NCBI GenBank assembly: GCA_026393905.1
Contig: JAPKZH010000643.1
Coordinates: forward strand, 1-38,922
Direction: 5' to 3'
Length of the DNA: 38,922 nucleotides
Source of the DNA: Candidatus Aminicenantes bacterium
GTDB lineage: Bacteria > Acidobacteriota > Aminicenantia > Aminicenantales > UBA4085
Each line of letters starts with the position of its first letter. Position 1 is the first letter of the stretch. This document shows, one piece after another, positions 8,978 through 35,153 of this stretch. The position numbers and the translations under genes are program-made. Under the pieces are notes generated by a model. That model ran no database searches. It was not told the origin of the DNA and worked only from the letters and a program-made list of their open reading frames with translations.

Positions 8978-9886
8978 ATGGCGAAAGGCGCCATCTTTCT
9001 TGTTTCTTTGATCCTTCATATTGCCGGCTTTAGCGTTGTCCTCCATCTTAAATTCACCTACAAGATTTATGACCTAAAGCAGAAGTCGGTGTCGGCGTTC
9101 ATCGTGCCCAAGGAAAAAATCGTCGCGCCGAGGAGAGACGGGCTGGCCGCCGGAATTCCTGCCGGGGAGGATTTAGGGGGAAAAGAAATCGTCGGCGGAG
9201 CAGGTTCAGGGGCCGGTCGAGCCGCGGTCGGGCAAAAGCCGGCGGAATCGAAGGCCCCTTCCGGAGGTCAAGCCGCAAGGCCGGGGGGAGCCGCCCCGGC
9301 CGTCCAAAGCCCATTCGAGGTCAAAGGGGAAATCAAGGAATCACGGAATTTTTCCTCTGGGTTTGGCCTGCTCATTCCGCCGAAATCCAAGCTCGACCTG
9401 ACAAAAACCAAAGGGAGTCTTGAGGATTCCTATCTTCCCCGGGACAAATACCAGGTCAGGTCGGACATTGATTTCTCCAAATATCTTTATCGAGGCGCGG
9501 CCATTTCAGGCACAACCGGCGGGGGAGGCCGGCCCGGCCGTCCGGGAAAGAAAGGAGCCCAGGCTTTTATCGGAGGCGCCGCGCCCGCGAACGTCCAGAA
9601 ATATAACTTTTCGCCATGGGCCAATGCCGTGATGAATCGGATCCAGAAGAACTGGTCGATTGCCGCTCCCGCTGATTTCGCCTGGAAGGGCGAAGTCGGG
9701 ATTATCGTGGTGATCGGGAAGAACGGGAACCTGACCTTGATCGAAGTGATCGCCTCATCCAAAATCGATGCCTTGGACCAGGCGGCCATTCGGGCGCTCG
9801 AGTTGAGCCTGCCCTTTCCGGCCCTGCCGGCCGATTTTCCCAATTCCAGCCTTGACGTCTACTTTATTTTCCAATATGGCTATTAA
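8978..9886 (+). CDS. TonB/TolA C-terminal domain protein
   Basis: N-terminal TM with S-x3-H motif (SLILH); G/A/P-rich linker; C-terminal 'RIQKNW...SSKIDALDQAAIRAL...PFPALP'. Confidence 0.8.
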   Translation: MAKGAIFLVSLILHIAGFSVVLHLKFTYKIYDLKQKSVSAFIVPKEKIVAPRRDGLAAGIPAGEDLGGKEIVGGAGSGAGRAAVGQKPAESKAPSGGQAARPGGAAPAVQSPFEVKGEIKESRNFSSGFGLLIPPKSKLDLTKTKGSLEDSYLPRDKYQVRSDIDFSKYLYRGAAISGTTGGGGRPGRPGKKGAQAFIGGAAPANVQKYNFSPWANAVMNRIQKNWSIAAPADFAWKGEVGIIVVIGKNGNLTLIEVIASSKIDALDQAAIRALELSLPFPALPADFPNSSLDVYFIFQYGY

Positions 9887-10931
9887 AGAGAAGCTTGCTT
9901 TCATCCTCCTGCTGGCTGTCTCCGTCCAGGCCCTGCCGGCTCAATGGAAGGACGACGTAGCCGGCATTTTTCGGGGGACGCGGGATCTTAAAAGCATCGT
10001 GGAATTGGTCCTGCCCCAGCTCGACAAAATGGACGCCGCCGATAAGGCCGACGCCTCGGGGCTGCTGGCGTTCTGTTTTAACAAGCTGAATGACAAGACG
10101 AACGAGATCAAATGGATCGCCGAGTATTTCGAGACCTACCGGGCCGGGGACTCGGGATACGCCTTTATCGACCTGGTGGGCCAGGCCGAGGTGATCGCCT
10201 TCCTTTCCAGCTGGAAAAGCCGCTATCCGTTCGTTCCGGAAATAGCCCTCATCGCCGGCGTCGGAGGCAACCCGATCATTATTCAAGGCATTCTGCCCCT
10301 CGGGTTCGACCTGACCGCCGATGCCTATTATAAATTTTCCGAGGGATCGACCGTCCTCAAGGCCGGCCTTTTCAAATCCGGCGCGAATATCCTCAGCCTG
10401 GATGCCAATGATCTTTTCTTAAAGCCGGGGAGGCACACGTATTTTCTGGAGCTCAAGGCGGGCGAGCTCGTCCTCAAGAAGGAACTCGACTTAGACATCG
10501 AGGTGTCTTCTCCCTGGAACGAGCCGAAAGCCCCGAGCCTGAAAAGGAAGCCCCTCTATTACAGGCTATCCATGTATGTCGGAGGGGAGCTGGTGATGGC
10601 CAGCCAGAAGATGGAGAATGCCGTGCCCCTCAAGCTGGACGTCAAGCCGAACCAGAATCCGTTCGGCTACAAACCGGACTATTATGTCACGCGCAATAAT
10701 CCCGGAAGGACAGATTACTTCTCGATCTCCACCGCCATCGAGCTGCTCTACCAGCTTTTCAAGGCCCTCCTGAAAAAGAAGGATGCGAAAGCCGAGCCGC
10801 CGAAAATCCAGCTGGTTCAAGAAATGACGATCTCCAACAAGCAAAAGGATGTGGACGGCAATGACCGGGAGACCAAGGTCTCGATCAAGCTGAAGACGAA
10901 AAACCTTCCTTACGTGTTGAGCGTCCCGTAA
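9876..10931 (+). CDS. Secreted hypothetical protein
   Basis: ATG 9876 overlaps the end of the TonB gene; signal peptide MAIKEKLAFILLLAVSVQALPA-QW; 351 aa, no recognised family. Confidence 0.75.
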   Translation: MAIKEKLAFILLLAVSVQALPAQWKDDVAGIFRGTRDLKSIVELVLPQLDKMDAADKADASGLLAFCFNKLNDKTNEIKWIAEYFETYRAGDSGYAFIDLVGQAEVIAFLSSWKSRYPFVPEIALIAGVGGNPIIIQGILPLGFDLTADAYYKFSEGSTVLKAGLFKSGANILSLDANDLFLKPGRHTYFLELKAGELVLKKELDLDIEVSSPWNEPKAPSLKRKPLYYRLSMYVGGELVMASQKMENAVPLKLDVKPNQNPFGYKPDYYVTRNNPGRTDYFSISTAIELLYQLFKALLKKKDAKAEPPKIQLVQEMTISNKQKDVDGNDRETKVSIKLKTKNLPYVLSVP

Positions 10932-12036
10932 GGGAATGGAGAACATCTTCCACCCGGGCCAGGGCGGTGCGCAAGGCCTGCTCTTCGACGCCGAAGCCGA
11001 TTCGAAGAAAACGGTCCATTTCAAAGAGGTCGCCCGGGGCCAGGAAAACGCTTTTTTCGCGGATGATTTTTAAGGCCAGCTCCGTGGAATTTACGGGCAG
11101 GCTATAGCGGACAAACGTGATCGCGCCGGCCTTGGGAGGGATAAAGGCAAACGTGCCGTCCTGCTTTTTGAGCCAGGATTCCAGAATCGCATAATGATGA
11201 GTCAAGATCTCCCGGGTCCGCTTGAGGATGCGGTCGCGGACGCCGGGCGAAAGGGCGGTGCGTGCCAGGCGGTCGCTCAGGGCGCTCGGCGAGATGGTGG
11301 TGTAATCGTGGTAGGGTCCTATCTTTTGGATCGTGTCCATCGGCCCGACGATCCAGCCGATTCTCAACCCGGGCAAGCCGTACGCTTTGGAGAGGCCGTT
11401 GACGGAAATCACCTTGTCGTAGAGCCCCCAGAACGACGGCGTCCTTGGCCCGATCCTTTCTGCGTTCTGATAGACCTCATCCGCCAAGATCCAGGCGCCC
11501 GAGGCTTGAGCCAGGTCGATGATCGTCTTCATCTCATCTTGACTGAGGACCGCGCCGGTCGGATTGTTGGGATTGGTCAGGATAATGAGCTTCGTTTTTC
11601 GGGTGACCTGTTTTTTGAGCTCGTCGAGGTCCGGGGCCCAATGGCGTTCCTCCCGGAGATGGAATGTCTTGACCTTGGCCCCGAATCCGCGCAGCAGCCC
11701 CCACATCTGCATGTAGTTGGGAAGCTCGAAGATGACTTCGTCGCCGGGTTCGATGAGCGCCCACATCAAGAGATAGTTGGCCTCGGTGGAACCAGTCGTC
11801 ACTTGAATCTGTCCCGGGTTTAGGCCCGGGTATGAGGCGGCGATCTGTTCCCGGAGTTCGGGCGTTCCGTTCGTCTGGCTGTAGCCCAAGCCCAGCCTGA
11901 GAATTTCCTGGAGCTCGTCGGCGGGGACGAATTCCTCGAGGGAAAGGGCATGGACGCCGCTTTCGGCGAGGTTGTAATCGACCACGTTCTCCCACGTCGA
12001 CTGCATCCGTTCCAGTTTAAAGACTTCGATGTTCAT
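10885..12036 (-). CDS. Class I/II PLP-dependent aminotransferase
   Basis: NPNNPTG, ADEVY and GLSKAYGLPGLRIGW motifs. Confidence 0.92.
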   Translation of the reverse strand: MNIEVFKLERMQSTWENVVDYNLAESGVHALSLEEFVPADELQEILRLGLGYSQTNGTPELREQIAASYPGLNPGQIQVTTGSTEANYLLMWALIEPGDEVIFELPNYMQMWGLLRGFGAKVKTFHLREERHWAPDLDELKKQVTRKTKLIILTNPNNPTGAVLSQDEMKTIIDLAQASGAWILADEVYQNAERIGPRTPSFWGLYDKVISVNGLSKAYGLPGLRIGWIVGPMDTIQKIGPYHDYTTISPSALSDRLARTALSPGVRDRILKRTREILTHHYAILESWLKKQDGTFAFIPPKAGAITFVRYSLPVNSTELALKIIREKSVFLAPGDLFEMDRFLRIGFGVEEQALRTALARVEDVLHSLTGRSTRKEGFSSSA

Positions 12037-12081: not shown

Positions 12082-12909
12082 CTATATTTCCACCTTAAAA
12101 AAGCCCTTCAGGCCGAAGCCGAAGATGATGGACAGGGCGAAGAAGACGATGAGCCAGTGAATATGCCAGCCGAAAAGATTCATGCCTGGGGCGGGATAGA
12201 CCACCTCGACCGATTGGATCCCCAGCTTTTTAAGGAGCGGCCTTTCGCCGGGATTGAACAGCTGGTCAAAAAAGCTCGAACTGGCTTTAACGGCGGAAAT
12301 CTTGGAAAGTCGGTGTTGCTCCACCGCGACTTGTTTGGGAAAGGACTGATTCTCCCATCGGAAGGTAATGGTGTGGACGCCCTTGTCGAGGGCCCGCAGA
12401 CGCCAATCGATTTCCCGGAGTTCTTCGATTCTCAGGGCGGGAGTTTCGACCGAGATGCCGGCGGGCGGTTCGATCGCAATTTCTATCTGGAAAGGATTTT
12501 TGCCTTCTTCGAGCTTGATTTTCAGGACGGCCTCTTGCCCGACATCCAAAGACCGGTACCCGAACCAGAGGTTGAGTTGGATGAGGATGAGAAGGACCGG
12601 AACGATCATGACCAGCATCGGCTTGGCGGAATAGCTGAGGTATTTCAGGTTGGCGAGTAGGATGTGGCCGTAAGCCTTCAAAGACACTCGCATGTTGTCC
12701 TTATAAAGGCGAAGCTCCAGCAGGTGGGCTTTAATCTTGTTTTTGGCCTTTCGGATGCCTTCCTGGTTGGAGGTGTGGCGGAAAATAAAGAGCATCAACA
12801 GGCCTGTCAGGAGAGAGATGAGGATCATCCCGAACCACGGGCTTGCCTGGCGGAACGGCAGAAAAATGATTTCAAAGATCCTGCCGAAGGCCGCGTTAAA
12901 TGTCCACAT
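12082..12909 (-). CDS. Membrane protein resembling the DUF106/EMC3/TMCO1 (Oxa1 superfamily) family, with an inserted beta-rich domain
   Basis: TM1 (PWFGMILISLLTGLLMLFIF), coiled coil (TSNQEGIRKAKNKIK...), TM2 (SAKPMLVMIVPVLLI), ~125-aa soluble insert, TM3 (HWLIVFFALSIIFGFGLK). Start set to ATG 12909 behind GAAGGG. The CDS is secure; the family call is by eye. Confidence 0.65.
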   Translation of the reverse strand: MWTFNAAFGRIFEIIFLPFRQASPWFGMILISLLTGLLMLFIFRHTSNQEGIRKAKNKIKAHLLELRLYKDNMRVSLKAYGHILLANLKYLSYSAKPMLVMIVPVLLILIQLNLWFGYRSLDVGQEAVLKIKLEEGKNPFQIEIAIEPPAGISVETPALRIEELREIDWRLRALDKGVHTITFRWENQSFPKQVAVEQHRLSKISAVKASSSFFDQLFNPGERPLLKKLGIQSVEVVYPAPGMNLFGWHIHWLIVFFALSIIFGFGLKGFFKVEI

Positions 12910-12939
12910 CGTTCCCTTCACTCAAAATGTAAAATGGCA

Positions 12940-13179: not shown

Positions 13180-15168
13180 TCAAAATATCGTTTTCCCGAT
13201 TAAATCCCTGGGCTTTTCGACGCCGAAGACGTCGAGGATCGTCGCCGTGAGATCATAGAGGGCGGGGGCTTCAGCCAGGATCGGGCGATTGGCGACCAGG
13301 ATCCCGGTGAGGATCTCCGCCGCGCCCATGTGGTCGCCGCTCCATTTTCCCTTGTTGTCCTCGAGCACGTTCTTTTCCATTTTTCCGAGCGGCGAGCCGA
13401 AGGAAATGCGATAGCCGCGGTTGAATCCCAGGACGATATCGGGCGCCTCTCCGACAAATGGACCGGAATAGACATCCTTGGCGACATAGGCCTTCAATAA
13501 AACCCTCTGACCCGTCTTGGGATCGACGAATTCTTCCAGCTTTTTTGCGATTTCCCGGACCAGGTTCTCTTTTTCGGCGCCGTCTCCGACGATGCCTTCG
13601 GCCTCCCGGCCCCTCTGATTGATATACAAGCCGTTCAGGCCTACTCCGAAGGCTTTCGTCCTCGACCAGTCCGTGTCGGGAAAAAGATTTCCGGTTTCCA
13701 GTTTGAAGGGATTGGTCAGGACATGATAGCCGTTTTCCTTGAGCCAAGTGTTCAAGCTGAAACTGCGGCTGAAAGGATTGAATCCGTGGTCGGACATGAC
13801 GATGACAATCGTATCTTTGTCGATTTTATCCATGGCCCTGCCCAGGATCGAATCCGCTTCCCTGTAGATGTTTTCGATGACCTTCCCGTATTTGGCGGCC
13901 AGCCCCGCATCATAAGCGGGATGCTTCTCATCGAGCAGCCGCCAGAACATGTGCTGGCGCTGGTCTGTGCTCGAGATGTAATAAAAGAGAAGCCCGGAAT
14001 CAAACCGCCCCAGTTCGTCGTCCAGCATAACCTTGCTTTCTTGAAGGACGAAATCATCCTGTTCTAGGAATTCGCCTTCATCCAGGATGTCATTATCGAG
14101 GGCGCTGGTATCGGCAGGAAGCCCTTTGGTGAAAAACGGGCCGAATCTTTTTTCGAGCTCCGCGGCATAGGCTGACGGGGTGGAAAGGGGAAGGGCAGGA
14201 TCGGCCGGGTCGATGTTGATTGAGGAGACATAGAGCTTGAAGTTGGGCCGGACTTCCTTGAGGTAGAACATGCAGATGCCGCTCACGCTTTGGGTTGGAA
14301 TCAGGGAAAAGCGGACCCTCTTCCAGCCGCTCCATTCTTTTTCTTTTAGGATGAATTCCTGGTCCTGGATGGCGACCTTGGCCACCGGGTTTTGCGGGTC
14401 GAGGAAGACCTTGAACTCGATCTCGGCTTCCGGCCGGTCTTTTTTAAAGGTGTTGGCAGGACCCGGGAGCTTGGAATCCACCCGGTTCCCGATGACATAA
14501 ACCGGATGGACGGATCCTCCGCCGATATCCTCTTTGATCTCTTTAGGCTCAGTTGTGTAATACCTGAAAGAGTTGTAATTGCCCAGGAGATCCGGCGTCC
14601 CCAGTCCGGAAAATGTTTTTTGCTTGGAGGGAACAGGAGGATAGTTGGCGGGCATTTTAAAAATCGCCGCCGGGATGTCGTGCTCCTCCAGGATCTGCCA
14701 GAAAGCTTTGCCCTGGCGGAGGTTCCGGACCTCTCCGCCTTTTATGGGAAGGACCCAGTTTCCGACGCGGATCGTCTTTTTCGCTTCTTCGGTTAAGGCT
14801 GCGGAAAAAACAGGCCAATAGTTTTTGGGATCGCGGTGGATAAAATCGAAAATGCCGTGGCCGCCCGGGTTCGTGCCGGCGATGAAATTGGACCAGGCGA
14901 CGGGGCTCTGGGGCGGGATGCTCGTGCCGAGCCTGCGGAATCCTCCTTGTCCGATGAGACGTTTAAAGGCGGGCAGCTTGCCTTCGCTCATCCAGACATT
15001 CGTGAGATGCGGGTCCATCCCGTCAAACCCGAGTATCAGGACTTTCTTGTTTGTGGCCGTTTTGCCAAAGGTTCGAGTCACAAGATTCGAGCGCGATTCC
15101 AAGGCCAGCAGGGAGGCGGCCCCTAGGCTATATTTCAAAAAATCCCGGCGATGGATCGGCTCGCTCAT
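13180..15168 (-). CDS. Alkaline phosphatase superfamily (type I phosphodiesterase/NPP, COG3379-like) protein with Tat signal
   Basis: HRRDFLK twin-arginine motif; GFDGMD, PPQSPVAW (Ser nucleophile), TDQRQH, MSDHG and WSGDH. Confidence 0.9.
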   Translation of the reverse strand: MSEPIHRRDFLKYSLGAASLLALESRSNLVTRTFGKTATNKKVLILGFDGMDPHLTNVWMSEGKLPAFKRLIGQGGFRRLGTSIPPQSPVAWSNFIAGTNPGGHGIFDFIHRDPKNYWPVFSAALTEEAKKTIRVGNWVLPIKGGEVRNLRQGKAFWQILEEHDIPAAIFKMPANYPPVPSKQKTFSGLGTPDLLGNYNSFRYYTTEPKEIKEDIGGGSVHPVYVIGNRVDSKLPGPANTFKKDRPEAEIEFKVFLDPQNPVAKVAIQDQEFILKEKEWSGWKRVRFSLIPTQSVSGICMFYLKEVRPNFKLYVSSINIDPADPALPLSTPSAYAAELEKRFGPFFTKGLPADTSALDNDILDEGEFLEQDDFVLQESKVMLDDELGRFDSGLLFYYISSTDQRQHMFWRLLDEKHPAYDAGLAAKYGKVIENIYREADSILGRAMDKIDKDTIVIVMSDHGFNPFSRSFSLNTWLKENGYHVLTNPFKLETGNLFPDTDWSRTKAFGVGLNGLYINQRGREAEGIVGDGAEKENLVREIAKKLEEFVDPKTGQRVLLKAYVAKDVYSGPFVGEAPDIVLGFNRGYRISFGSPLGKMEKNVLEDNKGKWSGDHMGAAEILTGILVANRPILAEAPALYDLTATILDVFGVEKPRDLIGKTIF

Positions 15169-17300
15169 GATTTCTTCTCCTTGGCCGCGGGCGCGATTCC
15201 CGGCTTGGTCAGCAAAGACCGGCCGTCCATGTGGGCCGGCGGCTCCAGCCCGAAGAGCTCGAGCACCGTCGGCGCGATGTCCATGATCGAAGGATTTTTG
15301 GCATCGATTTTCCGGCTGCAGAAAAGTACGCCCGGTACCCAGGCCGGGTCGATGCAGTGGTCGCCGCTCCAGGCCTTGGTGTTGTCCTCGAAGACGGCGG
15401 GCGTGATTTTTCCGGTCACGCCTTCCCAGGAAGCCCGGTAGCCGGCATTGTATCCGATGATCAAGTCCGGCGAGTTTTCTTTATAAGGTCCATGATAGAT
15501 TTCGTCCCGGTCATAGACCCGGCTGACGGCTACCACTCCCTTTTCCTCGTCCTTCAGTCCGGTGAGTTTTTTCAGGAGTTCGGCTTTCAGCGCTCTTGTC
15601 TCGTCGCCGGCTCCGACCAGGCCCTTGGCCTCGCGGCCCTTCTCGTTGACATAGAGCCCGCCCAAGCCCAGGGCGTAGGCCTTCGTCCTTTCCCAGTCCA
15701 CATCCCTGAACCACTCCTCGCTTTCGGCCTTGCCGTTTTTCAAGAACAGATAGCCGGTTTTATGGAGCCAGGAATTGAGGTTGACGCCGCGTTTGAACGA
15801 CTTGAAGCCGTGGTCGGACATGATAAAAAGCGCGCTCTTCTCACCCATTTTTTTCCAGAGGCGGCCGACCATCTCGTCCATGTTCCGGAAGAGCTCTTCG
15901 ATGACCTTATCGCTCATCAGGGCCCGGCCGCTTTTGAGCGCCGGGTGGTCCTTGTCCAGGTATCTCCAGAACATATGGGAAATGCTGTCGGTCGTCTCGA
16001 ACACGCAGATGACCAGGCCCTTCTTGGTCTTGGCCAGGGCATTGTCGACCATGGCTTCCCATTCGCGGTGGTTCGAGTAGGTCAGCTCAAGAAAAGCCTG
16101 CTCGCTCAGCGCACCTTCATTGAGCGCCCAGGTGTCGTTGGCTTCCCCGAGGGTGATAAAGCTCCCCAGGAGCTTCGACAGATAGACCGAATAGATGAAT
16201 GGATGGGAGATGGGCAGGGCGGGCTTTTCCGGATCGATATTGAGGGGCGTGAGATACATCTCGAAATACGGCCGAACCTGGGAGACATAAAAACGGCAGA
16301 TGGCCTTGATTTTCATGCCCAGGCCGGGGCGAAATGTCAGGCGAATCCAGGGCGAAAATGTTTCTTTTTTCAGCATGATTTTCTGCCCCGAGACTTCGAT
16401 CCGGGCTTGTTCTTTTTCGGGCTCGATCGAAATCCTCATCGGCAGCCGGATTTCTTCCGCTTTTTTGAGGAGCGAGTTGTCCGGCCCCGAGATGTATGTC
16501 TCGACCCTGTTCCCTTTCACCTCGACGGGAATGGCGATCCCGCCCTCGCGCTTTTTGATCTTATCCGGGTCCGAAGTGTAAAAGGAGAATGTTCCCTGGC
16601 TTCCTTTGAGGTCGGGCGCGCACATCCCGGACAGCAGATGCCCCTTGAATTTTTCAGGCGGAAATGTGATCGGCACCCTCAGGACGGTGCTGAAAATTCC
16701 ATGGTCGCCCAGGATCTTCCAAAACGGAACACTTTTCCGCAGGCCCCTGATTTCCGGCTTGGAAAGCGGGACGTTGTATTTTCCGAGAGAAAAGACTCTT
16801 TTGGGCTTTCCGATCCGGGCTGAGGAGAGGTCGGGAAGATAGGTCTTCGGGTCGCGGCTGAGAAAGTCGAAGATATTATGCTTGGACGGTTCGGAGCCGG
16901 TCATGAACGAAGACCAGGCGACGGGAGAGATAGCCGGGGTCGTCGTTTGGAGACGGGCATAGGCCCCTTCCTGTTTGAGCTTCGAAAGATGGGGCAATTT
17001 GCCATCGGCCATGTATTTTTCGGCGAGCTCCGGGGAGAGCCCGTCGAGCCCGATGATGACCACCTGCTCGACCTGGCTTTTCTTGTACGCTTTTTTCCCT
17101 CTGATCAGGCGAAAAAAGAAGCGGAAAGGCCAGGCCACGAAGGAAAAAATGGCCAGAAAAAAAGTCAGGAAGAGGACGAGAAATGAGGAAAGAAAAGCGA
17201 ATCCGGCTCCCGGGCCGATATAGGCAGCGAGAGGAAGGCCTGATAAGAAGAATAAAAGAATAACCGCTCCGATTTTTGCCAGGCGATTTTTCTTGTCCAT
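15165..17300 (-). CDS. Membrane-anchored alkaline phosphatase superfamily (NPP-like) protein
   Basis: From ATG 17300: signal peptide, AYIGPGAG, TM helix, basic stretch, then GLDGLS, PAISPVAW, TDSISH, MSDHG and WSGDH. The stop overlaps the next ATG (ATGA at 15165-15168). The start is uncertain because the frame is open back to 17480. Confidence 0.88.
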   Translation of the reverse strand: MDKKNRLAKIGAVILLFFLSGLPLAAYIGPGAGFAFLSSFLVLFLTFFLAIFSFVAWPFRFFFRLIRGKKAYKKSQVEQVVIIGLDGLSPELAEKYMADGKLPHLSKLKQEGAYARLQTTTPAISPVAWSSFMTGSEPSKHNIFDFLSRDPKTYLPDLSSARIGKPKRVFSLGKYNVPLSKPEIRGLRKSVPFWKILGDHGIFSTVLRVPITFPPEKFKGHLLSGMCAPDLKGSQGTFSFYTSDPDKIKKREGGIAIPVEVKGNRVETYISGPDNSLLKKAEEIRLPMRISIEPEKEQARIEVSGQKIMLKKETFSPWIRLTFRPGLGMKIKAICRFYVSQVRPYFEMYLTPLNIDPEKPALPISHPFIYSVYLSKLLGSFITLGEANDTWALNEGALSEQAFLELTYSNHREWEAMVDNALAKTKKGLVICVFETTDSISHMFWRYLDKDHPALKSGRALMSDKVIEELFRNMDEMVGRLWKKMGEKSALFIMSDHGFKSFKRGVNLNSWLHKTGYLFLKNGKAESEEWFRDVDWERTKAYALGLGGLYVNEKGREAKGLVGAGDETRALKAELLKKLTGLKDEEKGVVAVSRVYDRDEIYHGPYKENSPDLIIGYNAGYRASWEGVTGKITPAVFEDNTKAWSGDHCIDPAWVPGVLFCSRKIDAKNPSIMDIAPTVLELFGLEPPAHMDGRSLLTKPGIAPAAKEKKS

Positions 17301-17388
17301 GCGAACCGCGGAATGGAGGCCGGCAGATCTGATCTTTTGGATCATTTCGGACCAAGCGCAGAGTCTCCTCTTGCCGCGCGGAAGGCAC

Positions 17389-17422
17389 GAGATTGCCACG
17401 GCCCAAGGGGCCTCGCAACGAC
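17389..17422 (-). repeat. GTCAT-type palindromic repeat, copy B
   Basis: Reverse complement reads GTCGTTGCGAGGCCCCTTGGGCCGTGGCAATCTC, matching copies C-E. A degenerate opposite-facing partner may lie at 17341-17367. Confidence 0.7.
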
Positions 17423-17479
17423 TGCGTCGGATGGCCATAGCCCAAAGCGCCTGGGAACGACGTCTTGTCTGATCTGTCA

Positions 17480-18775
17480 TTAAAAGCGATCCAAAATGAT
17501 CTGGGAAAGATCCGATATCGAGAGGTCCTGTCCGAAATCGTTTTTGGCCAGGAAAAAGGCATCATCCCAGGTGTGCATGCCCTGGAGCCCGGGCGTGCGC
17601 CCGAAGATCTCTTTTTTCTTGACCGAGCCTTTCAAGTCAAAACCCGGCTCAGAAAGGACGATCAGGTCCGGACCTTGAGAAACAAGCGGGCCGGAATAGA
17701 TGTCTTTGGCAAGGAAGACTTTCCGGATGATTTTTTTCCCCTCATACTCCAGCTTTTCCAGCTTCCGGACGATCTCCTCTTTGAGGGATTTCTGCTCCCC
17801 GGCGCGGACCGAGCCGTTGGGAAACTTATCTTTATAATTTAAATAGATGCGGCTGGGATCCAGGGCGAAGGCGATGGACTTGGCGGATATGTCTTCCAAG
17901 CCCTTTGGCGAGGAATTGGCGAACTTGAGGTATTTTTCTTTCTCGAGCCAGGCGTTGAGATAAACTTCCTGTCGGATGCCCGTGAAGCCATGATCGGAAA
18001 GAAAGAAGATATTTTCCTCGTCGCCCGCCGTTTTGCGGAAGGAGGAATATATTTTATTGACGAGCCGGTCGATCTGGCGGTAATAATCGAGAAAATTCTG
18101 GTGGTGAGGGTGGTTCGGGTCCTCATAGGCGTTCCAGAGAAAGTGGTGGAGCCTGTCGGTCCCCGTGATGACGAACTCAAAATAGTCCCATTCCTCCTCC
18201 CAAAAAAGGTTCAAGGCCTTCTGACGGCCCATGAGCGTTTTGATCAGTTCCTGCCAGAGAAAGCCGTGGTTCTCCCGGGCTTTGAGCGTGTCGATATCGA
18301 TCTGGTAGCCCATCTGTTCCAGGTCGACCTTATATGAAGGCGGATAGACGGCCTTGGCCAGCTCGATAGCCACGAACCCGGAGATGAGCACCCCGTTGAT
18401 TTTCCGGGCCGGGTAAGTGGACGGCTGGTTGATGATGATGCATTTTTTGCCTTTTTCGCTTAGGCCGTCCCAAAAAGTCGGCACCTGGACATCTAAAAAA
18501 TTCGGAAAGCGAAGGTCATAGGAGCGGGGTTTTAGGTCGGTAAACCCGAAAATGCCGTGCGTTCCCGGATTGGTACCGGTCATGAAGTTGGTCCAGCTGA
18601 CGGCAGAGATCTCGGGAAGGCTGGCCTTCATTTTATGGAGATGACCGGAATCGATGATCCTCCCCAGAGCCGACATGATCCCCTTCTTGGCCAGGTCGAT
18701 GAGAAGGCCGTAGGGAACGCCGTCCAGGCCGATAACGCAAACGCGTTTTTCATTTTTTTTCTTGAAGATAGACAT
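17480..18775 (-). CDS. Cytoplasmic alkaline phosphatase superfamily (NPP-like) protein
   Basis: No signal peptide; GLDGVP, PEISAVSW, TDRLHH, LSDHG and GMH motifs. Confidence 0.9.
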   Translation of the reverse strand: MSIFKKKNEKRVCVIGLDGVPYGLLIDLAKKGIMSALGRIIDSGHLHKMKASLPEISAVSWTNFMTGTNPGTHGIFGFTDLKPRSYDLRFPNFLDVQVPTFWDGLSEKGKKCIIINQPSTYPARKINGVLISGFVAIELAKAVYPPSYKVDLEQMGYQIDIDTLKARENHGFLWQELIKTLMGRQKALNLFWEEEWDYFEFVITGTDRLHHFLWNAYEDPNHPHHQNFLDYYRQIDRLVNKIYSSFRKTAGDEENIFFLSDHGFTGIRQEVYLNAWLEKEKYLKFANSSPKGLEDISAKSIAFALDPSRIYLNYKDKFPNGSVRAGEQKSLKEEIVRKLEKLEYEGKKIIRKVFLAKDIYSGPLVSQGPDLIVLSEPGFDLKGSVKKKEIFGRTPGLQGMHTWDDAFFLAKNDFGQDLSISDLSQIILDRF

Positions 18776-18820
18776 AAACCGGCCTATTATAGCACCAAAA
18801 GCCGAGTTGTCAATTAAACG

Positions 18821-18941: not shown

Positions 18942-19631
18942 CTATCGGGGCAAGCTGACGGCTTTGAGCACCTGGGCGAGAAATTCCTCTTCCGGGACGG
19001 CCCCTTCGAAAGAGATGGTCTCGTTGACGACGGTTTTAGGGACTCCGTACACGTTGAATCGATTGGCCAGGTGGGGAAATTCCGTCGACTCCACCATATC
19101 GGCCTTAACCAAAGGAGATTCCAGGGAAAACTGATGTCCCAGACGGACGGCCTTGGTGCAGTAGGGGCAGGTCGGCGTGACAAAGACCTGGATGTGGATG
19201 TCTTTATCGACGGACTTGAGGGCATCTTTGGTTTGAGCGGAAAGCTCGGTTCTTCGCTTTGAGACATCCGCGATGGCTTCGACAAGGCTCGTGTATTCGT
19301 ATCCGGAAGGGATCCCATAGAAGCGTATCCCGTAGTCTTGATCGCCCATGATCACGGTCGCGGGGATCTTGTCGATCTTGTATTCGGCGGCTTTTTCTTT
19401 ATCCGCCGTATAGTCATAGACCAGGAGTTCGATTTTATCGGAAAGAGCTTTGACCTCTTCCAAAAGCTGCTTGGTTTCTTTGCAGAAGAAGCAGGCCTGT
19501 CCTTTGAGCGAGTCGGGATGGACGAGCCGGCTCGGTTCCTGAGTGAAATAGAGGATGGTGACTTTGTTTTCGAGCTCGCCGTCGAATTTTTTCTTGGTGG
19601 CCTCGCGGACTTCTTGGCTGAGGATTTCCAT
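18942..19631 (-). CDS. Protein disulfide oxidoreductase (PDO; two thioredoxin folds, AhpF-NTD-like)
   Basis: CFFC and CPYC motifs; IRFYGIPSGYEY; GVPKT; SD AAGGAG. Confidence 0.9.
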   Translation of the reverse strand: MEILSQEVREATKKKFDGELENKVTILYFTQEPSRLVHPDSLKGQACFFCKETKQLLEEVKALSDKIELLVYDYTADKEKAAEYKIDKIPATVIMGDQDYGIRFYGIPSGYEYTSLVEAIADVSKRRTELSAQTKDALKSVDKDIHIQVFVTPTCPYCTKAVRLGHQFSLESPLVKADMVESTEFPHLANRFNVYGVPKTVVNETISFEGAVPEEEFLAQVLKAVSLPR

Positions 19632-21188: not shown

Positions 21189-23900
21189 TCACTCCCCATC
21201 CGGGTTTTCGACGCCGTCCCCGGATCGTTGCCCCTTTCCCGAAATTTTTTCCAGTCGAAATTGAAAGGCGCCGCTTTGGGTGCTTAAAATGATTCGTCTG
21301 TCTTCGATCCGCTGAAAAGACAGGCCCTCAAGATTCCTGAAGCGCCCGCCTTTTCGCCAGAGGACCTGTCCGCCTTCTTTAAAATCACCGTTTCTCCACA
21401 GCAGCGGAATATGGATTTCGGCTTCGACCCCAACGGGAATCCCGAGGTCGAGCTCGAAGCAATCTTCCTTCCTCCTCCAAGAGACACGGATGTCGCCTCG
21501 AATCGTCTTGAGCGAGGCCGAGGCGGAATCCAGATTCCGGAAGAGCGGCGGCTTGACCAGGATTTTTTTCCAGCCGGGAACCAGGCAGTTCACCCCGGCC
21601 ACGGTTTTATAAAACCAGGCGTCCACGCTGCCCAGCATGATATGGTTGTGGGAGTTCATGCCGCCGCCTGTGATTTTCTCCCAGCGTTCCCAAAGCGTCG
21701 TGGCGCCTTCCCTGACCATATAGCCCCAGCCTGGGTAGCTTTTCTGGGTGGCCACCCGAAAGGCCGTTTCCGCATGTCCATTTTCCGTCAGGACATCGAG
21801 AAGGTAGCGCGTGCCGAGGATGCCGGTATCGAGATGGTAATCCTGGTCGCTGACAACGCTGCGGACAAGCGCATCGAGGACTTTGTTCCTTTTTCTTTTC
21901 GGGACCATGTCCAGATAAAGGGGCAGGACGTTGGATGTCTGGCTGGCTATCTTTTCGACAGGGCTCATCCGGACGGCTTCATAGGCGTCTTGCTTCAGGA
22001 ATCTTTTATTGAAAGCGGTTTTGATGTCCCGGGCCAGACGGGCCAGGCGTTTTTCGTCGTCCGGTTTCTTAACAATACCGGCCATCTTGGAAAGGAAAAG
22101 CGTATCGTGATAGAAGAACCAGGTCGAGGTGAGCTCGACGGTCGTTTTTTTGGGAGGGATGCTTCCCGGGGGACACCAGTCGCCGTATTTGCCCAATTTA
22201 TCGATAATACAGCCTTTGGAACTGCGGTGGAGGAATGACACGTATTTTTTCATGGCTTCAAAGTGCTTTTCCAAAACTCTAGTGTCTCCATAATAGAGAT
22301 AAAGATTCCAGGCGAGCGTGATGTAGGCCGAGCCCCAGGCGGGATCGGCCGGATAGAGGCGGCCGAGATAGGGAGGGACTGTGTCCGGGAGGCTGCCGTC
22401 TTTTTTCTGGGCGTTCTTGATATCTTGAAGATACTTGGTGTAAAAAGCGGCCATATCAAAATTCAGGATGGCCTCTTCCGCCGAGAGATGGGCGTCGCCC
22501 AGCCAGCCGTGCCTTTCATCCCTCTGCGGGCAATCCGTCGGGATGCTCATCAAATTCGAAAGCTGCCCCCACCGGATATTCCGGTGGACGCGGTTGATTA
22601 GACGATTGGCACAGCGAAAATCCCCTCCGGGTTCGACATCCGTATGAACGAAACAGCCCTCGACATCGAGGATCTTCGGCAGTTTGGGAAGGCCGCTCAC
22701 TTCCGCATACCGAAAGCCATGCTGGGTGAAGCGCGGCTCATACCGTTCGGCGCCTTTCCCTTTGAGGACATAGACATCCGTGGCCTCTGCGTTCTGATTG
22801 GGCGACGTGTTCAGCCGTCTGTCCTCATGGATGAGCTCGGCGTGCCTGAGCGTCAGCGCCGTCCCGGCCCGACCTCGAACCGATATTCCGACCCAGCCTG
22901 AAAAATTCTGTCCGAAATCGAAGATGAGGCGTTCCGGTCCCGGGCACCAGGTCTTTTTCGGCTTCAACCTCCGGACGACCTTGATCGGAGGCAGCATCTG
23001 GGAACGGAGCGGCGCGCCTCTCACGCAGACCGCCCGTCCCTGGAATATCTTCGGCTCGAGCCGTCCGTCGCAGCGCTCGCCGAAATAGAGGCCGTTTTCC
23101 ATAAGCGGTCCATGCCCGGATTTCCAGGATTCATCCGTGCCCACGACCTGCCGTTTTCCGTCTTCAAACTCCATTTCGATTTGGGCGATCACCCTCGGGC
23201 TGCCGTAGCCGAAATTGGCGATATGCCGGCCGTTTCCCAGGCTGATGAGGGCCTCGTTTATCGGCTTCAGCATTCTCGTGATGTCAAAAGTCGAATAGAG
23301 AGCCGTCTTGGCGTAATCGGTCTGGGCCGGATCAAGGACATGGTCGCCGACTTTCTGTCCGTTGAGAGACAGCTCATAGAACCCGAGTCCGCAGATATAA
23401 ACCCGGGCCCTTTTAAGCCCCCGCCCCATCCGGAATTCCTTTCCCAAATAGATCGCCCGTGTCTGGACATAATCCCCCCGGAATTTTCCCTGCAACACGG
23501 TCCCCCTGGACCGGAATTCAACGGGTTTTTTCAGGCTGATCCATCGCGCCTGCCAATCCGACTTGTCCAGCAGCCCCATTTCAAAAAAAGCGGTTTTACT
23601 ATAGGCACTGGGACGGCCGTTCTTGTCCCACCAGCGAACGCGCCAATAATAGCGCCTCCGGCTCTCCAACTTTTTTCCGGCGTATTCGATGTGAAAATGC
23701 CTATCTGTATTTATGCGCCCGCTGTCCCAGCAATCGCCGGCTCCCCGCGCCGTCGACGAGACGATGATCTCGTAAGCGGAAGGCTTTTGCCAGCGCTCGA
23801 AGTGGCGGAGAACCCAGGACAAGCGCGGCTTGGGGATATCGATTCCGATAGGATCCTGGAGATATTCACACCTGAGGCGCAGGGGAGGGGGAATGGTCAT
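21189..23900 (-). CDS. GH78 alpha-L-rhamnosidase (no signal peptide)
   Basis: LRCEY..PIGID..PRLSW, DFGQN, IPTDCPQRDER.GWLGD, GATTLWERW and SHNH motifs. Confidence 0.93.
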   Translation of the reverse strand: MTIPPPLRLRCEYLQDPIGIDIPKPRLSWVLRHFERWQKPSAYEIIVSSTARGAGDCWDSGRINTDRHFHIEYAGKKLESRRRYYWRVRWWDKNGRPSAYSKTAFFEMGLLDKSDWQARWISLKKPVEFRSRGTVLQGKFRGDYVQTRAIYLGKEFRMGRGLKRARVYICGLGFYELSLNGQKVGDHVLDPAQTDYAKTALYSTFDITRMLKPINEALISLGNGRHIANFGYGSPRVIAQIEMEFEDGKRQVVGTDESWKSGHGPLMENGLYFGERCDGRLEPKIFQGRAVCVRGAPLRSQMLPPIKVVRRLKPKKTWCPGPERLIFDFGQNFSGWVGISVRGRAGTALTLRHAELIHEDRRLNTSPNQNAEATDVYVLKGKGAERYEPRFTQHGFRYAEVSGLPKLPKILDVEGCFVHTDVEPGGDFRCANRLINRVHRNIRWGQLSNLMSIPTDCPQRDERHGWLGDAHLSAEEAILNFDMAAFYTKYLQDIKNAQKKDGSLPDTVPPYLGRLYPADPAWGSAYITLAWNLYLYYGDTRVLEKHFEAMKKYVSFLHRSSKGCIIDKLGKYGDWCPPGSIPPKKTTVELTSTWFFYHDTLFLSKMAGIVKKPDDEKRLARLARDIKTAFNKRFLKQDAYEAVRMSPVEKIASQTSNVLPLYLDMVPKRKRNKVLDALVRSVVSDQDYHLDTGILGTRYLLDVLTENGHAETAFRVATQKSYPGWGYMVREGATTLWERWEKITGGGMNSHNHIMLGSVDAWFYKTVAGVNCLVPGWKKILVKPPLFRNLDSASASLKTIRGDIRVSWRRKEDCFELDLGIPVGVEAEIHIPLLWRNGDFKEGGQVLWRKGGRFRNLEGLSFQRIEDRRIILSTQSGAFQFRLEKISGKGQRSGDGVENPDGE

Positions 23901-27216: not shown

Positions 27217-29007
27217 TCATTTTCTCAGAAGACCTTCCAGGCGGGCCTTGATCCGCAGGGCCGGCTCCCATCCCGGAGCCAATTCCAGGACTTTCCGGTT
27301 GAGGGACAAAGCCTCTATCAGGTCCCCTTTTTTGGCGGACAAAATGGATTGGCTGTGGAGAGCCTCGACGCTTTTTGGATTGATGGCCAGCGCCCGTTCC
27401 AAGGCCGCTTCGGCCTCGGGGATTTTTCCGAGTGTAATATAGACGTTGGCCATGTTGATTTGAGCGCCTTCGAGCCTGGGTTCGAGGGCCGCCGCCTTTT
27501 CATACCATTGGAGGGCCTGCTGCCAACGGCCTTGATTGGCTTCAATGATACCCAGATTGAGACAGGAAAGAAAATCCTTCGGATTATCATTCAAGGCTTC
27601 GCGGTAATGGCGGGCCGCCTCCTGGATATCTCCCTTCTGGTCATAGATGACGCCCAGGTTATAGTGGACCAGGTCCATCCGGGGCTTGAATGAAGCGGCC
27701 ATGGGTGCGGCAAAAGCGACCGCTATTCCGGCAGCGAGGAGAGCGGCCACAGGTTTTTTCCGCTGCTTGAGCGCGTCGAAAAAACGGATAAAGGGCTGAG
27801 AAGCAAGAAGGAGCAGGCAGGGCACCGCCGGAAGTCTGTAACGAGAAAAAAGGAAGAAGGCGATCGTGGAGACCAGCCACGCCGCCAGAAAAATGAGCAC
27901 GGGCGAGAAGCCGCCAACCCGTTTTCCAAGAAGGACAAGGCCGAGGGCGGCCAAAATGCTCAACGTGCCGAATCCGATCGCCAAGTATCTAAAGACCCAG
28001 GATTTTTGTCGGACATAATAATAGTCCACCGTATCCGGCCATTCATACCAGCTCCAGAACATGATCAGTTTTTTAAACTGGAGCTTCGCGTAGTCCCAAG
28101 GTTTCTGCCGGATCCAGGACAGCGATTTCTTGAGCCAGAAGCGCGAAACCTGGGCTGGCGTGAGCGTGCGCCCGGTTTCTTGTTCAGCCAGACGGACCGG
28201 TTCCGTGCGCTCATAATAAGGAATCTCTTTTCCCGGGACGATGGATTGGTATGTGCCGGTGGCGCGAGCATTGTTGCCGATGTAAAAGTTGACTCCGCCT
28301 TGAAATGTGGTCGGAAGGAAGCTCCCGCCGACGACTCCGTTCCTCAAGGCAACGGGCGCCAAGACAAGGAATACGCCGAGGATAAAAGCGCCGGCGCTCT
28401 TGATAAAGAGGCCGGCCCGGGACTTTGAACGAAAAGCCAGGATGAGCAGGAAAGGCGCGACGAGCAGCGCGTTTTCCCTGAGCAGGCTGAGAAGTCCGCA
28501 TAGAACACCGGAGAGGAGCCACAACCGGAATTGTTGATTTCGACGCGCCTCGGCAAGAACCCACAACAGGAAGCAGACGATCGTGACCGCCAGTGATTCT
28601 TTTTGGATCTGGACATCATAGAAGAGAAATCCGCCGTAGAATGTGGCAAGAGCGGCGGCCCACAAGCCCGTTTTTTCGTCGGAAAGGGTCTTTCCCGCCC
28701 TGTAGAGGGCATAAATGCCGGCGACAGCACCGGCGATCTGAAAAAGATAGACGATGTCAAGGACATGCCCGAAAACCTTATAGAGGACGGCCAAGATGTA
28801 GGGATAGAGCGGCGCCTGGAAAAAAACTCCCGTCCCCGCCCAATTCCCGGCCGCGATTTCCCGAGCCCACCGGTCGTATTCCTGGCTGTCCATGGCCAGT
28901 TGGGCGAAAAAGGGCTCATTTCTAAGGGCCAGCCAATGGAGGATCCGCAGGAGAAGGGCCGCGGACAGAATCGCGAAGAGCAGGTACGGCGGCTTCTTCT
29001 GTTTCAT
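27217..29007 (-). CDS. GT-C fold glycosyltransferase (GT39/PMT_2/ArnT-like) with C-terminal TPR repeats
   Basis: Multi-TM N-terminal domain with MDSQEY and QAPLYPY; C-terminal TPRs (HYNLG, CLNLG, QINMA). ATG 29007 overlaps the rhaA stop (ATGA). Confidence 0.85.
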   Translation of the reverse strand: MKQKKPPYLLFAILSAALLLRILHWLALRNEPFFAQLAMDSQEYDRWAREIAAGNWAGTGVFFQAPLYPYILAVLYKVFGHVLDIVYLFQIAGAVAGIYALYRAGKTLSDEKTGLWAAALATFYGGFLFYDVQIQKESLAVTIVCFLLWVLAEARRNQQFRLWLLSGVLCGLLSLLRENALLVAPFLLILAFRSKSRAGLFIKSAGAFILGVFLVLAPVALRNGVVGGSFLPTTFQGGVNFYIGNNARATGTYQSIVPGKEIPYYERTEPVRLAEQETGRTLTPAQVSRFWLKKSLSWIRQKPWDYAKLQFKKLIMFWSWYEWPDTVDYYYVRQKSWVFRYLAIGFGTLSILAALGLVLLGKRVGGFSPVLIFLAAWLVSTIAFFLFSRYRLPAVPCLLLLASQPFIRFFDALKQRKKPVAALLAAGIAVAFAAPMAASFKPRMDLVHYNLGVIYDQKGDIQEAARHYREALNDNPKDFLSCLNLGIIEANQGRWQQALQWYEKAAALEPRLEGAQINMANVYITLGKIPEAEAALERALAINPKSVEALHSQSILSAKKGDLIEALSLNRKVLELAPGWEPALRIKARLEGLLRK

Positions 29008-31760: not shown

Positions 31761-31785
31761 TCCGTCTCCTTTAATACCACGATTC

Positions 31786-31883
31786 GGGGTCAAACCTCAA
31801 CATTCAACAAAAGGACCGGGGTCAAACCTACTCGTTACGCATGTTCCCCTGGAGTATTGTGCGTAACGAGTAGGTTTGACCCC
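31786..31883. repeat. GGGGTCAAA-terminated inverted-repeat element, copy 2, plus an extra end
   Basis: Perfect 24-bp IR GGGGTCAAACCTACTCGTTACGCA (31818-31841) / TGCGTAACGAGTAGGTTTGACCCC (31860-31883); extra GGGGTCAAACCT at 31786-31797. Confidence 0.85.
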
Positions 31884-35010: not shown

Positions 35011-35084
35011 GCGCCAGTAGCTCAGTTGGATAGAGCGCCTGACTACGAATCAGAAGGTCGGAGGTTCGAGTCCTCTCTGGCGCG
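35011..35084 (+). tRNA. tRNA-Arg (anticodon ACG), CCA not encoded
   Basis: Acceptor GCGCCAG/CTGGCGC; D arm GCTC-AGTTGGATA-GAGC; anticodon loop CT-ACG-AA; T arm with GGTTCGAGTCC. There is one C-A mismatch at the first anticodon-stem pair. Confidence 0.95.
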
Positions 35085-35153
35085 CTTCCTTTTCCCCCCA
35101 TATAACCCTTTGGAATCAGCGCTTTATGAGAAAACTCTCCAAAATCGCCGCAT

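Follow-up and report, generated by a model that had tools for sequence, protein, structure and literature searches.

The 38,922-nucleotide stretch of Candidatus Aminicenantes DNA analyzed here (contig JAPKZH010000643.1 of assembly GCA_026393905.1, positions 1 to 38,922; hereafter the window) carries a minus-strand unit of five genes, the last of which encodes a small membrane protein that we call DUF106L. The four genes upstream of it encode three paralogous phosphodiesterases of the NPP type, named NPP_A, NPP_B and NPP_C in gene order, and a short RHH-like protein (RHH). DUF106L has three transmembrane (TM) segments laid out like those of the archaeal DUF106/Ylp1 proteins, with a predicted immunoglobulin-like (Ig-like) domain between the second and the third. 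From sequence comparison, we read its family as a probable bacterial sister family of the DUF106/Ylp1 proteins, divergent from them but within the Oxa1 superfamily of membrane protein insertases. The coordinates of the unit, of the elements within DUF106L and of the neighboring features are collected in Table 1.

The open reading frame (ORF) listing of the window gives DUF106L as a minus-strand frame at 12082..12921, which encodes 279 aa from a GTG. An ATG is found at 12909, preceded by a Shine-Dalgarno-like AAGGGA at 12918-12913, and nearly all relatives are 275 aa long and start at the equivalent Met. On these two grounds we take the gene to be 12082-12909, encoding 275 aa plus a stop, and residues are numbered in this form unless stated otherwise; use of the GTG at 12921 as an alternative start is unlikely. 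The same coordinates had been given by a first-pass annotation, which a model made from the letters and a list of ORFs without database searches.

An AlphaFold 2 (AF2) model of DUF106L, built on 104 diverse relatives, has a mean pLDDT (predicted local distance difference test) of 97.1 and a pTM (predicted template modeling score) of 0.90. It places helices at residues 2-19, 24-46 (TM1), 49-68, 73-116 (the second arm of a hairpin, running into TM2) and 252-266 (TM3), and the helices at 2-19, 49-68 and 73-116 have block-mean pLDDT values of 96-98. Kyte-Doolittle windows find exactly three hydrophobic segments, at 25-43, 98-116 and 253-271. The N-terminal peripheral helix has a conserved F12 and a conserved P18-F19, with P18 kept in 88% of relatives. 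Each of the three TM segments presents one conserved face with polar residues: S32 and T35 in TM1, Q111 in TM2, and S/T260 in TM3. In TM1 the conserved face is made up of S32-T35-G36-M39-L40-F43 and is followed at the cytoplasmic end by S47-N48-Q49 (S32 is kept in 90% of relatives, T35 in 61%, S47 in 96% and Q49 in 97%). TM2 keeps P97 (98%), P104 (92%) and Q111 (77%, with His in another 15%), and TM3 keeps W252 (99%), S/T260 (95%) and K268 (85%). All of the elements listed by the first-pass annotation are thus found by AF2 and hydropathy, namely the N-terminal helix, TM1 ending in FRHTSNQ, a basic hairpin, TM2 starting KPMLVMIVP, and a TM3 of the form W..FF..SIIFG..LK. Its beta-rich insert between TM2 and TM3, put at ~125 aa, measures 133 aa (residues 118-250), and the TM2 motif that it had written as KPM-x4-P must be corrected to KPM-x5-P (P97...P104).

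The loop at residues 47-96 contains 11 Lys or Arg against 3 Asp or Glu. This hairpin is exactly 50 aa long and net positive in every one of the 104 aligned relatives (+1 to +9, median +5). The insert, on the other hand, is neutral in DUF106L (17 charges of each sign), and across the same relatives it has a length of 128-138 aa and a median net charge of 0. Under the positive-inside rule, such a charge pattern suggests an N-out/C-in topology in which the hairpin would be cytoplasmic and the beta domain would lie outside the membrane. Because a TonB-domain protein is encoded in the window, the envelope is presumably diderm and the term periplasm is apt for that outer compartment.

Within residues 118-250, AF2 assigns 11 strands of at least three residues and one short helix, with the beta domain spanning 121-250. 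Near-invariant positions in the insert are W169-R170, G177, K192, P220 and Y238. When the whole DUF106L model is compared with the PDB by Foldseek, domains 4-5 of the S-layer protein SbsC rank first (4uid, E=1.2e-4); cyclomaltodextrinase entries, filamin repeats and other sandwiches of this kind come next. Pfam has no family that matches the insert alone, even with the threshold relaxed to E<=10, and the model predicts that its fold is Ig-like. Most of the best 150 phmmer matches to DUF106L align over nearly the whole ~270-285 aa, which argues that the insert is part of the design of the family.

Table 1. Positions in the window of the five-gene unit, of the elements of DUF106L and of the neighboring features.
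Feature	Positions	Strand	Basis or remark
DUF106L coding sequence (DUF106/Ylp1-like protein)	12082..12909	-	ORF, Shine-Dalgarno-like AAGGGA, length of relatives, AF2
DUF106L N-terminal peripheral helix, amphipathic, residues 2-19 (H0/EH1 equivalent)	12853..12906	-	AF2 helix, hydrophobic moment 0.97
DUF106L TM1 (H1), residues 24-46	12772..12840	-	hydropathy
DUF106L basic cytoplasmic helical hairpin (predicted), residues 47-96 (CH1/CH2 equivalent)	12622..12771	-	AF2 helices 49-68 and 73 onward, charge
DUF106L TM2 (H4), residues 97-117, with P97, P104 and Q111	12559..12621	-	hydropathy
DUF106L Ig-like beta-sandwich, predicted extracytoplasmic, residues 118-250, at the h4h5 position	12160..12558	-	AF2 strands, Foldseek
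DUF106L H251-W252, TM3 (H5) with S260 and K268, and 8-aa cytoplasmic tail, residues 251-275	12085..12159	-	hydropathy
RHH protein, 63 aa	12940..13131	-	RHH_1 E=8.7e-4; ORF readable from 13176, relatives start MGK...
NPP_C, 662-aa type I phosphodiesterase/NPP, twin-arginine signal RRDFLK	13180..15168	-	PF01663 E=1.1e-31
NPP_B, ~711 aa, ORF open to 17480	15165..17300	-	PF01663 E=2.6e-33, hydropathy, anchor conservation
NPP_A, 431 aa, without signal or TM, first gene of the operon	17480..18775	-	PF01663 E=2.8e-34, hydropathy
Promoter-like sigma-70 site TTGACA-16-TATAAT, 12/12, with TG, just upstream of NPP_A	18786..18813	-	pattern match only
Class I/II aminotransferase, 45 nt downstream of DUF106L	10885..12036	-	PF00155 E=4.8e-52
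359-aa protein, no Pfam family, after the TonB-domain gene	9852-10931	+	opposite strand to operon
TonB C-terminal-domain protein	8978-9886	+	opposite strand to operon
229-aa protein, two thioredoxin-like regions, just upstream of the promoter-like site	18942-19631	-	Thioredoxin_3 E=3.5e-21
Rhamnose-utilization group	21189-23900, 29004-30269, 30285-31793	-	HD-domain, HEAT-repeat and PMT_2+TPR proteins between
tRNA-Arg, anticodon ACG	35011-35085	+	Rfam and ARAGORN; only RNA gene found in window

The only Pfam family matched by DUF106L is PF01956 (EMC3_TMCO1/DUF106), at E=0.0059 and 16.8-16.9 bits (cut-off 27.1), over residues 30-121 of the 279-aa form and positions 17-113 of the 169 in the profile. 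Residues 1-120 alone reach 18.7 bits, which is also below 27.1. When 104 diverse relatives were scanned singly, 9 matched PF01956 at E<=0.01, the best at 4.8e-8. A few relatives come with a precomputed PF01956 assignment. JGI gives several the name 'uncharacterized membrane protein (DUF106 family)', and NCBI lists one as 'DUF106 domain-containing protein', so that automatic annotation had already recognized the domain in part of the family. No NCBIfam model matches DUF106L.

The assignment is also supported by profile searches against the 177,635 distinct sequences of the PDB. A profile of the 104-sequence alignment has a single significant match, the archaeal DUF106/Ylp1 protein MJ0480 of M. 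jannaschii (5c8j; E=2.4e-7, 33.5 bits). Its positions 8-119 align with MJ0480 residues 9-124 and are collinear through the N-terminal helix, TM1, the hairpin and TM2, and HMMER reports a weak second stretch, profile 245-272 on MJ0480 170-197, that corresponds to TM3. Five conserved residues have identical counterparts in MJ0480: Pro for P18 (the one in its 'FMPI'), P97 and P104, Gln for Q49, and Trp for W252. A comparison with the insert removed, which the first-pass annotation had proposed as a check, bears this out: a core-only profile (residues 1-120, 43 closer relatives) finds MJ0480 and nothing else, at E=1.2e-8 and 38.4 bits. With both profiles the next PDB matches lie at E>=0.56, the core-only profile giving E=0.56. 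The order of elements in DUF106L also fits the scheme H0-H1-H2/H3-H4-h4h5-H5 that has been set out for the superfamily (PMC8675477; this and the other papers are cited here for the portions available to us). The same paper describes h4h5 as hypervariable in the Oxa1 superfamily, and we therefore count the insert as a variant feature and not as grounds for exclusion from DUF106/Ylp1. PF02096 (60KD_IMP, YidC) has no match in DUF106L at E<=1, nor in the 104 relatives at E<=0.01, and DUF106L is thus not a five-TM YidC.

We consider it very probable that DUF106L descends from the Oxa1 superfamily. Some results limit the placement. The score of DUF106L itself, 16.8-18.7 bits, is under the curated PF01956 cut-off of 27.1. 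Foldseek with the whole model is led by Ig-like and beta-sandwich domains, with no Oxa1-superfamily entry among the 50 matches listed, and is therefore uninformative about the TM core. A model of the 1-120 fragment, which leaves out TM3, is of moderate quality (pLDDT 80.1, pTM 0.54) and has no match at E<=1e-3 and no Oxa1-superfamily entry among the 50 listed, only generic helical hairpins at E values of 0.8-3 (Vipp1, ABC-transporter helices, ESCRT-III); as the fragment lacks TM3, we count the fold comparison neither for nor against. The hydrophilic groove is putative, with S32, T35, Q111, S/T260 and S47-N48-Q49, each set on a single helix face, as possible groove residues. The sub-threshold Pfam score, the lack of Foldseek support for the TM core and the lack of an NCBIfam model could together fit a three-TM protein with a charged loop that lies outside the superfamily and matches DUF106 by composition or convergence. 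Such an origin is highly improbable, given that two different profiles pick MJ0480 out of the whole PDB set, that the alignment runs collinearly for ~112 residues and takes in the polar hairpin as well as the matching Pro, Gln and Trp positions, and that some relatives exceed the Pfam cut-off in precomputed assignments. The DUF106/EMC3/TMCO1-type architecture claimed by the first-pass annotation therefore holds at the level of profiles, through the relatives that match PF01956 and through MJ0480, whereas the structural comparisons, with a core fragment lacking TM3, listed no structure of the superfamily. Because DUF106L is itself below threshold though some relatives match, we file the family as a divergent sister family and not as a scored member of PF01956.

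The family is large, well beyond what chance would give. A phmmer search over 1.84 billion representatives returned 2323 clusters (50% identity) at E<=1e-3; 1572 of these also pass E<=1e-10, and 504 pass E<=1e-30. A word-index search yielded 1008 proteins at E<=1e-3 among 1932 candidates. The close relatives are named Candidatus Aminicenantes. Relatives of a member that is only 34% identical to DUF106L bear the names Thermoanaerobaculia, Vicinamibacteria and Acidobacteriota, and in one case Gemmatimonadetes. In the ESM Atlas, whole DUF106L matches only clusters of its own kind, plus a weak lead in Planctomycetota (0.85; 17% of the cluster carry PF01956), and residues 1-120 have no usable match against named clusters. 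Many records that bear the operon are labeled 'uncultured Eubacteriales' (L002, L005, L007 and others), one is labeled Clostridiales and one Candidatus Desulfaltia. Such labels look unreliable, because the operon proteins in these records are 50-99% identical to those labeled Aminicenantes.

We examined gene context in species-representative genomes, where 404 matched stretches included 272 relatives of DUF106L, and kept the best 80 loci. These are 45-87% identical to DUF106L and come from Aminicenantes-type genomes; by label they are mostly Aminicenantes or Acidobacteriota, with many 'uncultured Eubacteriales' and a few Clostridiales, Desulfaltia, 'uncultured bacterium' and 'Bacterium'. The unit NPP_A, NPP_B, NPP_C, RHH, DUF106L is conserved in strand and order, with DUF106L last. 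Where enough flanking sequence was present, RHH lies directly upstream of DUF106L in 74/74 loci, NPP_C is present in 60/60 and NPP_B in 55/55, both in the same strand and order, and NPP_A is present in 48/50 (44 found automatically and 4 rescued manually); the two loci without NPP_A are L034 and L049. An aminotransferase directly follows DUF106L in 37/63 loci and is only a facultative neighbor. In the window, a search with the sigma-70 pattern found 10 sites against 4.4 expected, and the one just upstream of NPP_A is the only perfect one.

This strict synteny over the Aminicenantes loci agrees with the earlier suggestion that the protein is dedicated to its operon, and the role of DUF106L is likely tied to the NPP module. 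It also bears on whether DUF106L might instead serve as a housekeeping insertase of general range, in place of YidC or alongside it, its place in the operon being incidental. A housekeeping role would suit a very large family of Oxa1-superfamily descent whose basic hairpin is like that of ribosome-binding members. We regard it as very doubtful, since the operon context is invariant in 80 loci, unlike that of housekeeping biogenesis genes, and since the C-terminal tail is 8 aa long and is not a ribosome-binding tail, the C-terminal tail being the part of insertases that has a ribosome-binding role. To our knowledge, YidC is regarded as universal in bacteria. A toxin-antitoxin pair, made up of an RHH antitoxin and a membrane toxin, was also considered and rejected, as in all 80 loci the two genes are accompanied by NPP genes. 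It is further disfavored by the plasmid and phage collections, in which tblastn found no match. PADLOC has no model for any of the five operon proteins.

The three NPP paralogues share the motifs GLDG, P..S.V.W (with S57), TD..H, SDHGF and G.H, which are of the metal and nucleophile type and, as in the alkaline-phosphatase superfamily, presumably catalytic. NPP_B and NPP_C have in common an extra region of ~110 aligned residues that is missing from NPP_A. In PDB sequence searches, no relative of any of the three reaches E<=1e-3. The paralogues are predicted to occupy three different compartments: NPP_A would be cytoplasmic, the catalytic domain of NPP_B would sit at the cytoplasmic face of the membrane, and NPP_C would be exported to the periplasm by the twin-arginine translocation (Tat) pathway. 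The TAT_signal profile scores NPP_C at 16.9 bits, under its cut-off, and the RR motif is present in 8/8 relatives among those listed. A three-compartment phosphodiesterase module of this kind is uncharacterized in Aminicenantes-type genomes.

Among the other four operon proteins, hydropathy predicts TM segments in NPP_B only, and these make up an N-terminal anchor (17031-17300, minus strand). The anchor opens with a brief basic segment, which is followed by a hydrophobic, signal-like helix of variable sequence with PLxA at its end, by an invariant TM segment and by a basic RLIRGQKAYKKS. The near-invariant TM stretch, 'YIGPGAGFAFLSSF...WPFRF', reads YIGPGAGFAFLSSFLVLFLTFFLAxFSFLSWPFRF in full, and the invariant positions of the anchor are Y27, G29-P30-G31-A32-G33-F34-A35-F36, S38-S39-F40, W57-P58 and R60. 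Such conservation is far above what a simple membrane anchor needs. Because the anchor has basic flanks on both sides and a loop of ~7 residues, the catalytic domain is expected on the cytoplasmic side; cleavage of the first helix at PLxA is possible. The ORF of NPP_B is open for 60 further codons upstream of the start that relatives use (17301-17480, minus strand) and abuts the stop of NPP_A, but this extension is shared only with the closest relative (L002) and is for that reason probably untranslated. Hairpins with short translocated loops are the classic class of YidC-only substrates, for which phage procoat, with its signal, short loop and TM segment, is the textbook case. By analogy, the NPP_B anchor resembles the procoat layout.

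Phosphodiesterase paralogues that look catalytically intact, with motifs kept in all three, are predicted on either side of the membrane, which raises the question of whether DUF106L could be a conduit, through which the head of a phosphodiester lipid or of a lipid-linked polymer would pass, in a scramblase-like manner, from NPP_B at the cytoplasmic face to NPP_C in the periplasm. There is a precedent in that insertases, among them YidC, Oxa1 and Get1/2, use this groove to scramble lipids as well (PMC11047089). Scrambling is nevertheless a side activity of insertases, the NPP paralogues lack PDB sequence relatives at the threshold given above, and the conduit is purely inferential; we consider it distinctly unlikely. 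Its broader form, in which the groove would have been co-opted for non-protein cargo and DUF106L, NPP_B and NPP_C would act as one trans-envelope machine to flip a phosphodiester-linked lipid or polymer through the groove or to hand it over, seems to us a long shot. We know of no Oxa1-superfamily member dedicated to scrambling, and if this form were true, DUF106L would be the earliest example of an insertase-superfamily protein with a dedicated task apart from protein insertion.

RHH is the most conserved product of the operon. It is 63 aa long in 71 of the 76 loci where its ORF was located, and in many loci its stop lies 0-30 nt from the start of DUF106L. Its assignment to a family is weak, as RHH_1 matches at E<=0.01 in 11/33 RHH relatives. 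An RHH profile has no significant match in the PDB (NikR comes up at E=1.8), and no PDB or Pfam match accounts for its C-terminal tail. In the 33 aligned relatives, this acidic-basic tail, 'SEEEIKKKLKGLGYIS', which ends in KGLGYIS, is near-invariant, and the pair H34-C35 is invariant or nearly so. Conservation of both hints at a very constrained partner or at a metal site. Elsewhere in the window, the LGY[ILVM] motif of the tail has chance matches only.

The constant adjacency of RHH and DUF106L (74/74 loci, often 0-30 nt apart), the almost invariant RHH tail 'SEEEIKKKLKGLGYIS' and the positive charge of the hairpin in 104/104 relatives could be brought together if DUF106L were a signal transducer. 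The Ig-like domain would then be the sensor, either of a ligand or of the state of NPP_C, and RHH, as an acidic-tailed regulator, would be sequestered or released by the basic hairpin. We think this very unlikely, because DUF106L has no sensor-type domain, the RHH assignment is weak (E ~1e-3, 11/33 relatives), the interaction between RHH and the hairpin is hypothetical, and a mere tether would not need the conserved Oxa1-like features of the TM segments.

We tentatively propose that DUF106L is the dedicated insertase and assembly platform of the NPP module. In this model, DUF106L would be an inner-membrane three-TM protein of the DUF106/Ylp1 type that carries an Ig-like periplasmic domain in place of a short peripheral h4h5 element (EH2). 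Its groove-forming TM bundle would insert the procoat-like N-terminus of NPP_B, that is, the signal-like helix, the ~7-residue loop and the invariant TM segment, and would perhaps retain this anchor after insertion. The periplasmic Ig-like domain may dock NPP_C or another component of the envelope. The operon supplies an obvious candidate for the client or partner of DUF106L: NPP_B has the only other TM segments predicted among its products, and three-TM Oxa1 cores normally have a small TM partner (PMC13261788, PMC8675477). When DUF106L was modeled in complex with the 90-aa NPP_B anchor, the score was 0.01 in both runs, with a mark of 0.32; this prediction was run without controls and counts neither way.

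A number of considerations tell against such a dedicated insertase. The housekeeping YidC, presumably present, could insert the NPP_B anchor alone, and the need for a second insertase would then be unexplained. In a pure insertase model neither the Ig-like domain nor the extremely conserved RHH has a necessary role. The synteny is known from Aminicenantes-type genomes alone, at 45-87% identity. Finally, the insertase activity of DUF106L and its contacts with the NPP proteins, as well as the groove, the identity of the client and every other contact in the model, are inferred.

Some of the same features would be met by a protein of insertase descent that no longer inserts and that acts as a passive scaffold or anchor, holding NPP_B, NPP_C and perhaps NPP_A or RHH together as a trans-membrane complex. 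The strict co-occurrence with three NPP paralogues is consistent with a scaffold, as is the addition of a periplasmic Ig-like fold, a type common in protein interaction, whose length is conserved and which keeps the invariant surface-type motifs WR, PGE and YP. The invariance of the NPP_B TM segment likewise suggests a stable partner over a transient client. Three-TM Oxa1 cores normally function with a small TM partner (PMC13261788, PMC8675477), and GET1, EMC3, TMCO1 and archaeal YidC pair with theirs via the free face of the last helix (PMC13261788, PMC8675477), a stable kind of pairing that a scaffold could have kept. Yet the TM helices and the hairpin are the most conserved parts of DUF106L and have polar intramembrane residues typical of a working groove, and the contacts that a scaffold would make with the NPP proteins are hypothetical. 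We therefore regard a scaffold that has lost insertion as unlikely, and keep the dedicated insertase as our working proposal.

Of the characterized proteins, MJ0480 is the closest to DUF106L. Both have the order N-helix, TM1, cytoplasmic hairpin, TM2, TM3, with only three TM segments and a short C-terminal tail, and they share the Pro of the N-helix, the Gln after TM1, the P-x6-P of TM2 and the Trp that opens TM3. They differ in that DUF106L is bacterial and in that the TM2-TM3 linker, ~45 residues in MJ0480, is a predicted Ig-like domain of 128-138 aa in the DUF106L family. DUF106L also differs from archaeal DUF106/Ylp1 proteins in that its gene is embedded in a dedicated NPP operon and in that no gene for an EMC6- or Elp1-like partner was seen. 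With EMC3, TMCO1 and GET1/WRB, DUF106L shares the three-TM core and the cytosolic coiled coil, and EMC3/TMCO1 and the archaeal proteins belong to a common Pfam family, PF01956. The partners of these cores are EMC6 for EMC3, OPT1/C20orf24 for TMCO1 and GET2 for GET1 (PMC13261788, PMC8675477). DUF106L has no direct sequence or fold match to EMC3, TMCO1 or GET1 in the PDB profile searches or among the 50 Foldseek matches listed, and none of the three is known to carry a large folded domain in the segment from TM2 to TM3 (PMC8675477).

YidC, Oxa1 and Alb3 (PF02096) belong to the same superfamily according to the literature available to us, and YidC shares the cell compartment of DUF106L. The YidC of diderm bacteria bears a large periplasmic beta-domain, P1 (PMC8675477). 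P1 precedes the core, whereas the predicted Ig-like domain of DUF106L interrupts it. In addition, the core of YidC comprises five TM segments, with a TM hairpin occupying h4h5, whereas DUF106L has three TM segments and carries the predicted Ig-like domain at that position. A folded periplasmic domain is thus a third solution for h4h5, next to the TM hairpin and the short element.

The portions of the literature that we consulted present three-TM DUF106/Ylp1 proteins as archaeal with eukaryotic descendants and five-TM YidC as bacterial (PMC8675477, PMC7618853), and one study excluded non-archaeal PF01956 sequences as EMC3/TMCO1 (PMC8675477). A large bacterial family of the three-TM type stands against this placement. 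In the literature searched, which did not extend to supplements, we found no description of a bacterial DUF106 clade, of an Ig-like insertion or of the NPP operon, and a bacterial clade that combines a folded domain at h4h5 with a dedicated operon is, as far as we have seen, undescribed. Whether the ancestral insertase core had three or five TM segments is stated to be open (PMC7618853). If the proposed mechanism is true, it would provide a data point for this question, as well as a naturally minimal pair of insertase and client that could be reconstituted. A bolder proposal is that the family represents an ancient bacterial three-TM lineage and not an archaeal import, which, if true, would bear on whether the ancestral YidC was a three- or a five-TM protein.

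Outside of the five-gene unit, some neighbors recur in other loci. The thioredoxin-like protein is encoded upstream of the operon in four loci (L001-L003, L034), and the pair made up of the TonB-domain gene and the 359-aa gene lies downstream in six (L001-L003, L014, L019, L039). Farther upstream of the operon in the window is a loose rhamnose-utilization group, consisting of a GH78 alpha-L-rhamnosidase, the L-rhamnose isomerase RhaA (E=1.9e-183) and an FGGY sugar kinase.

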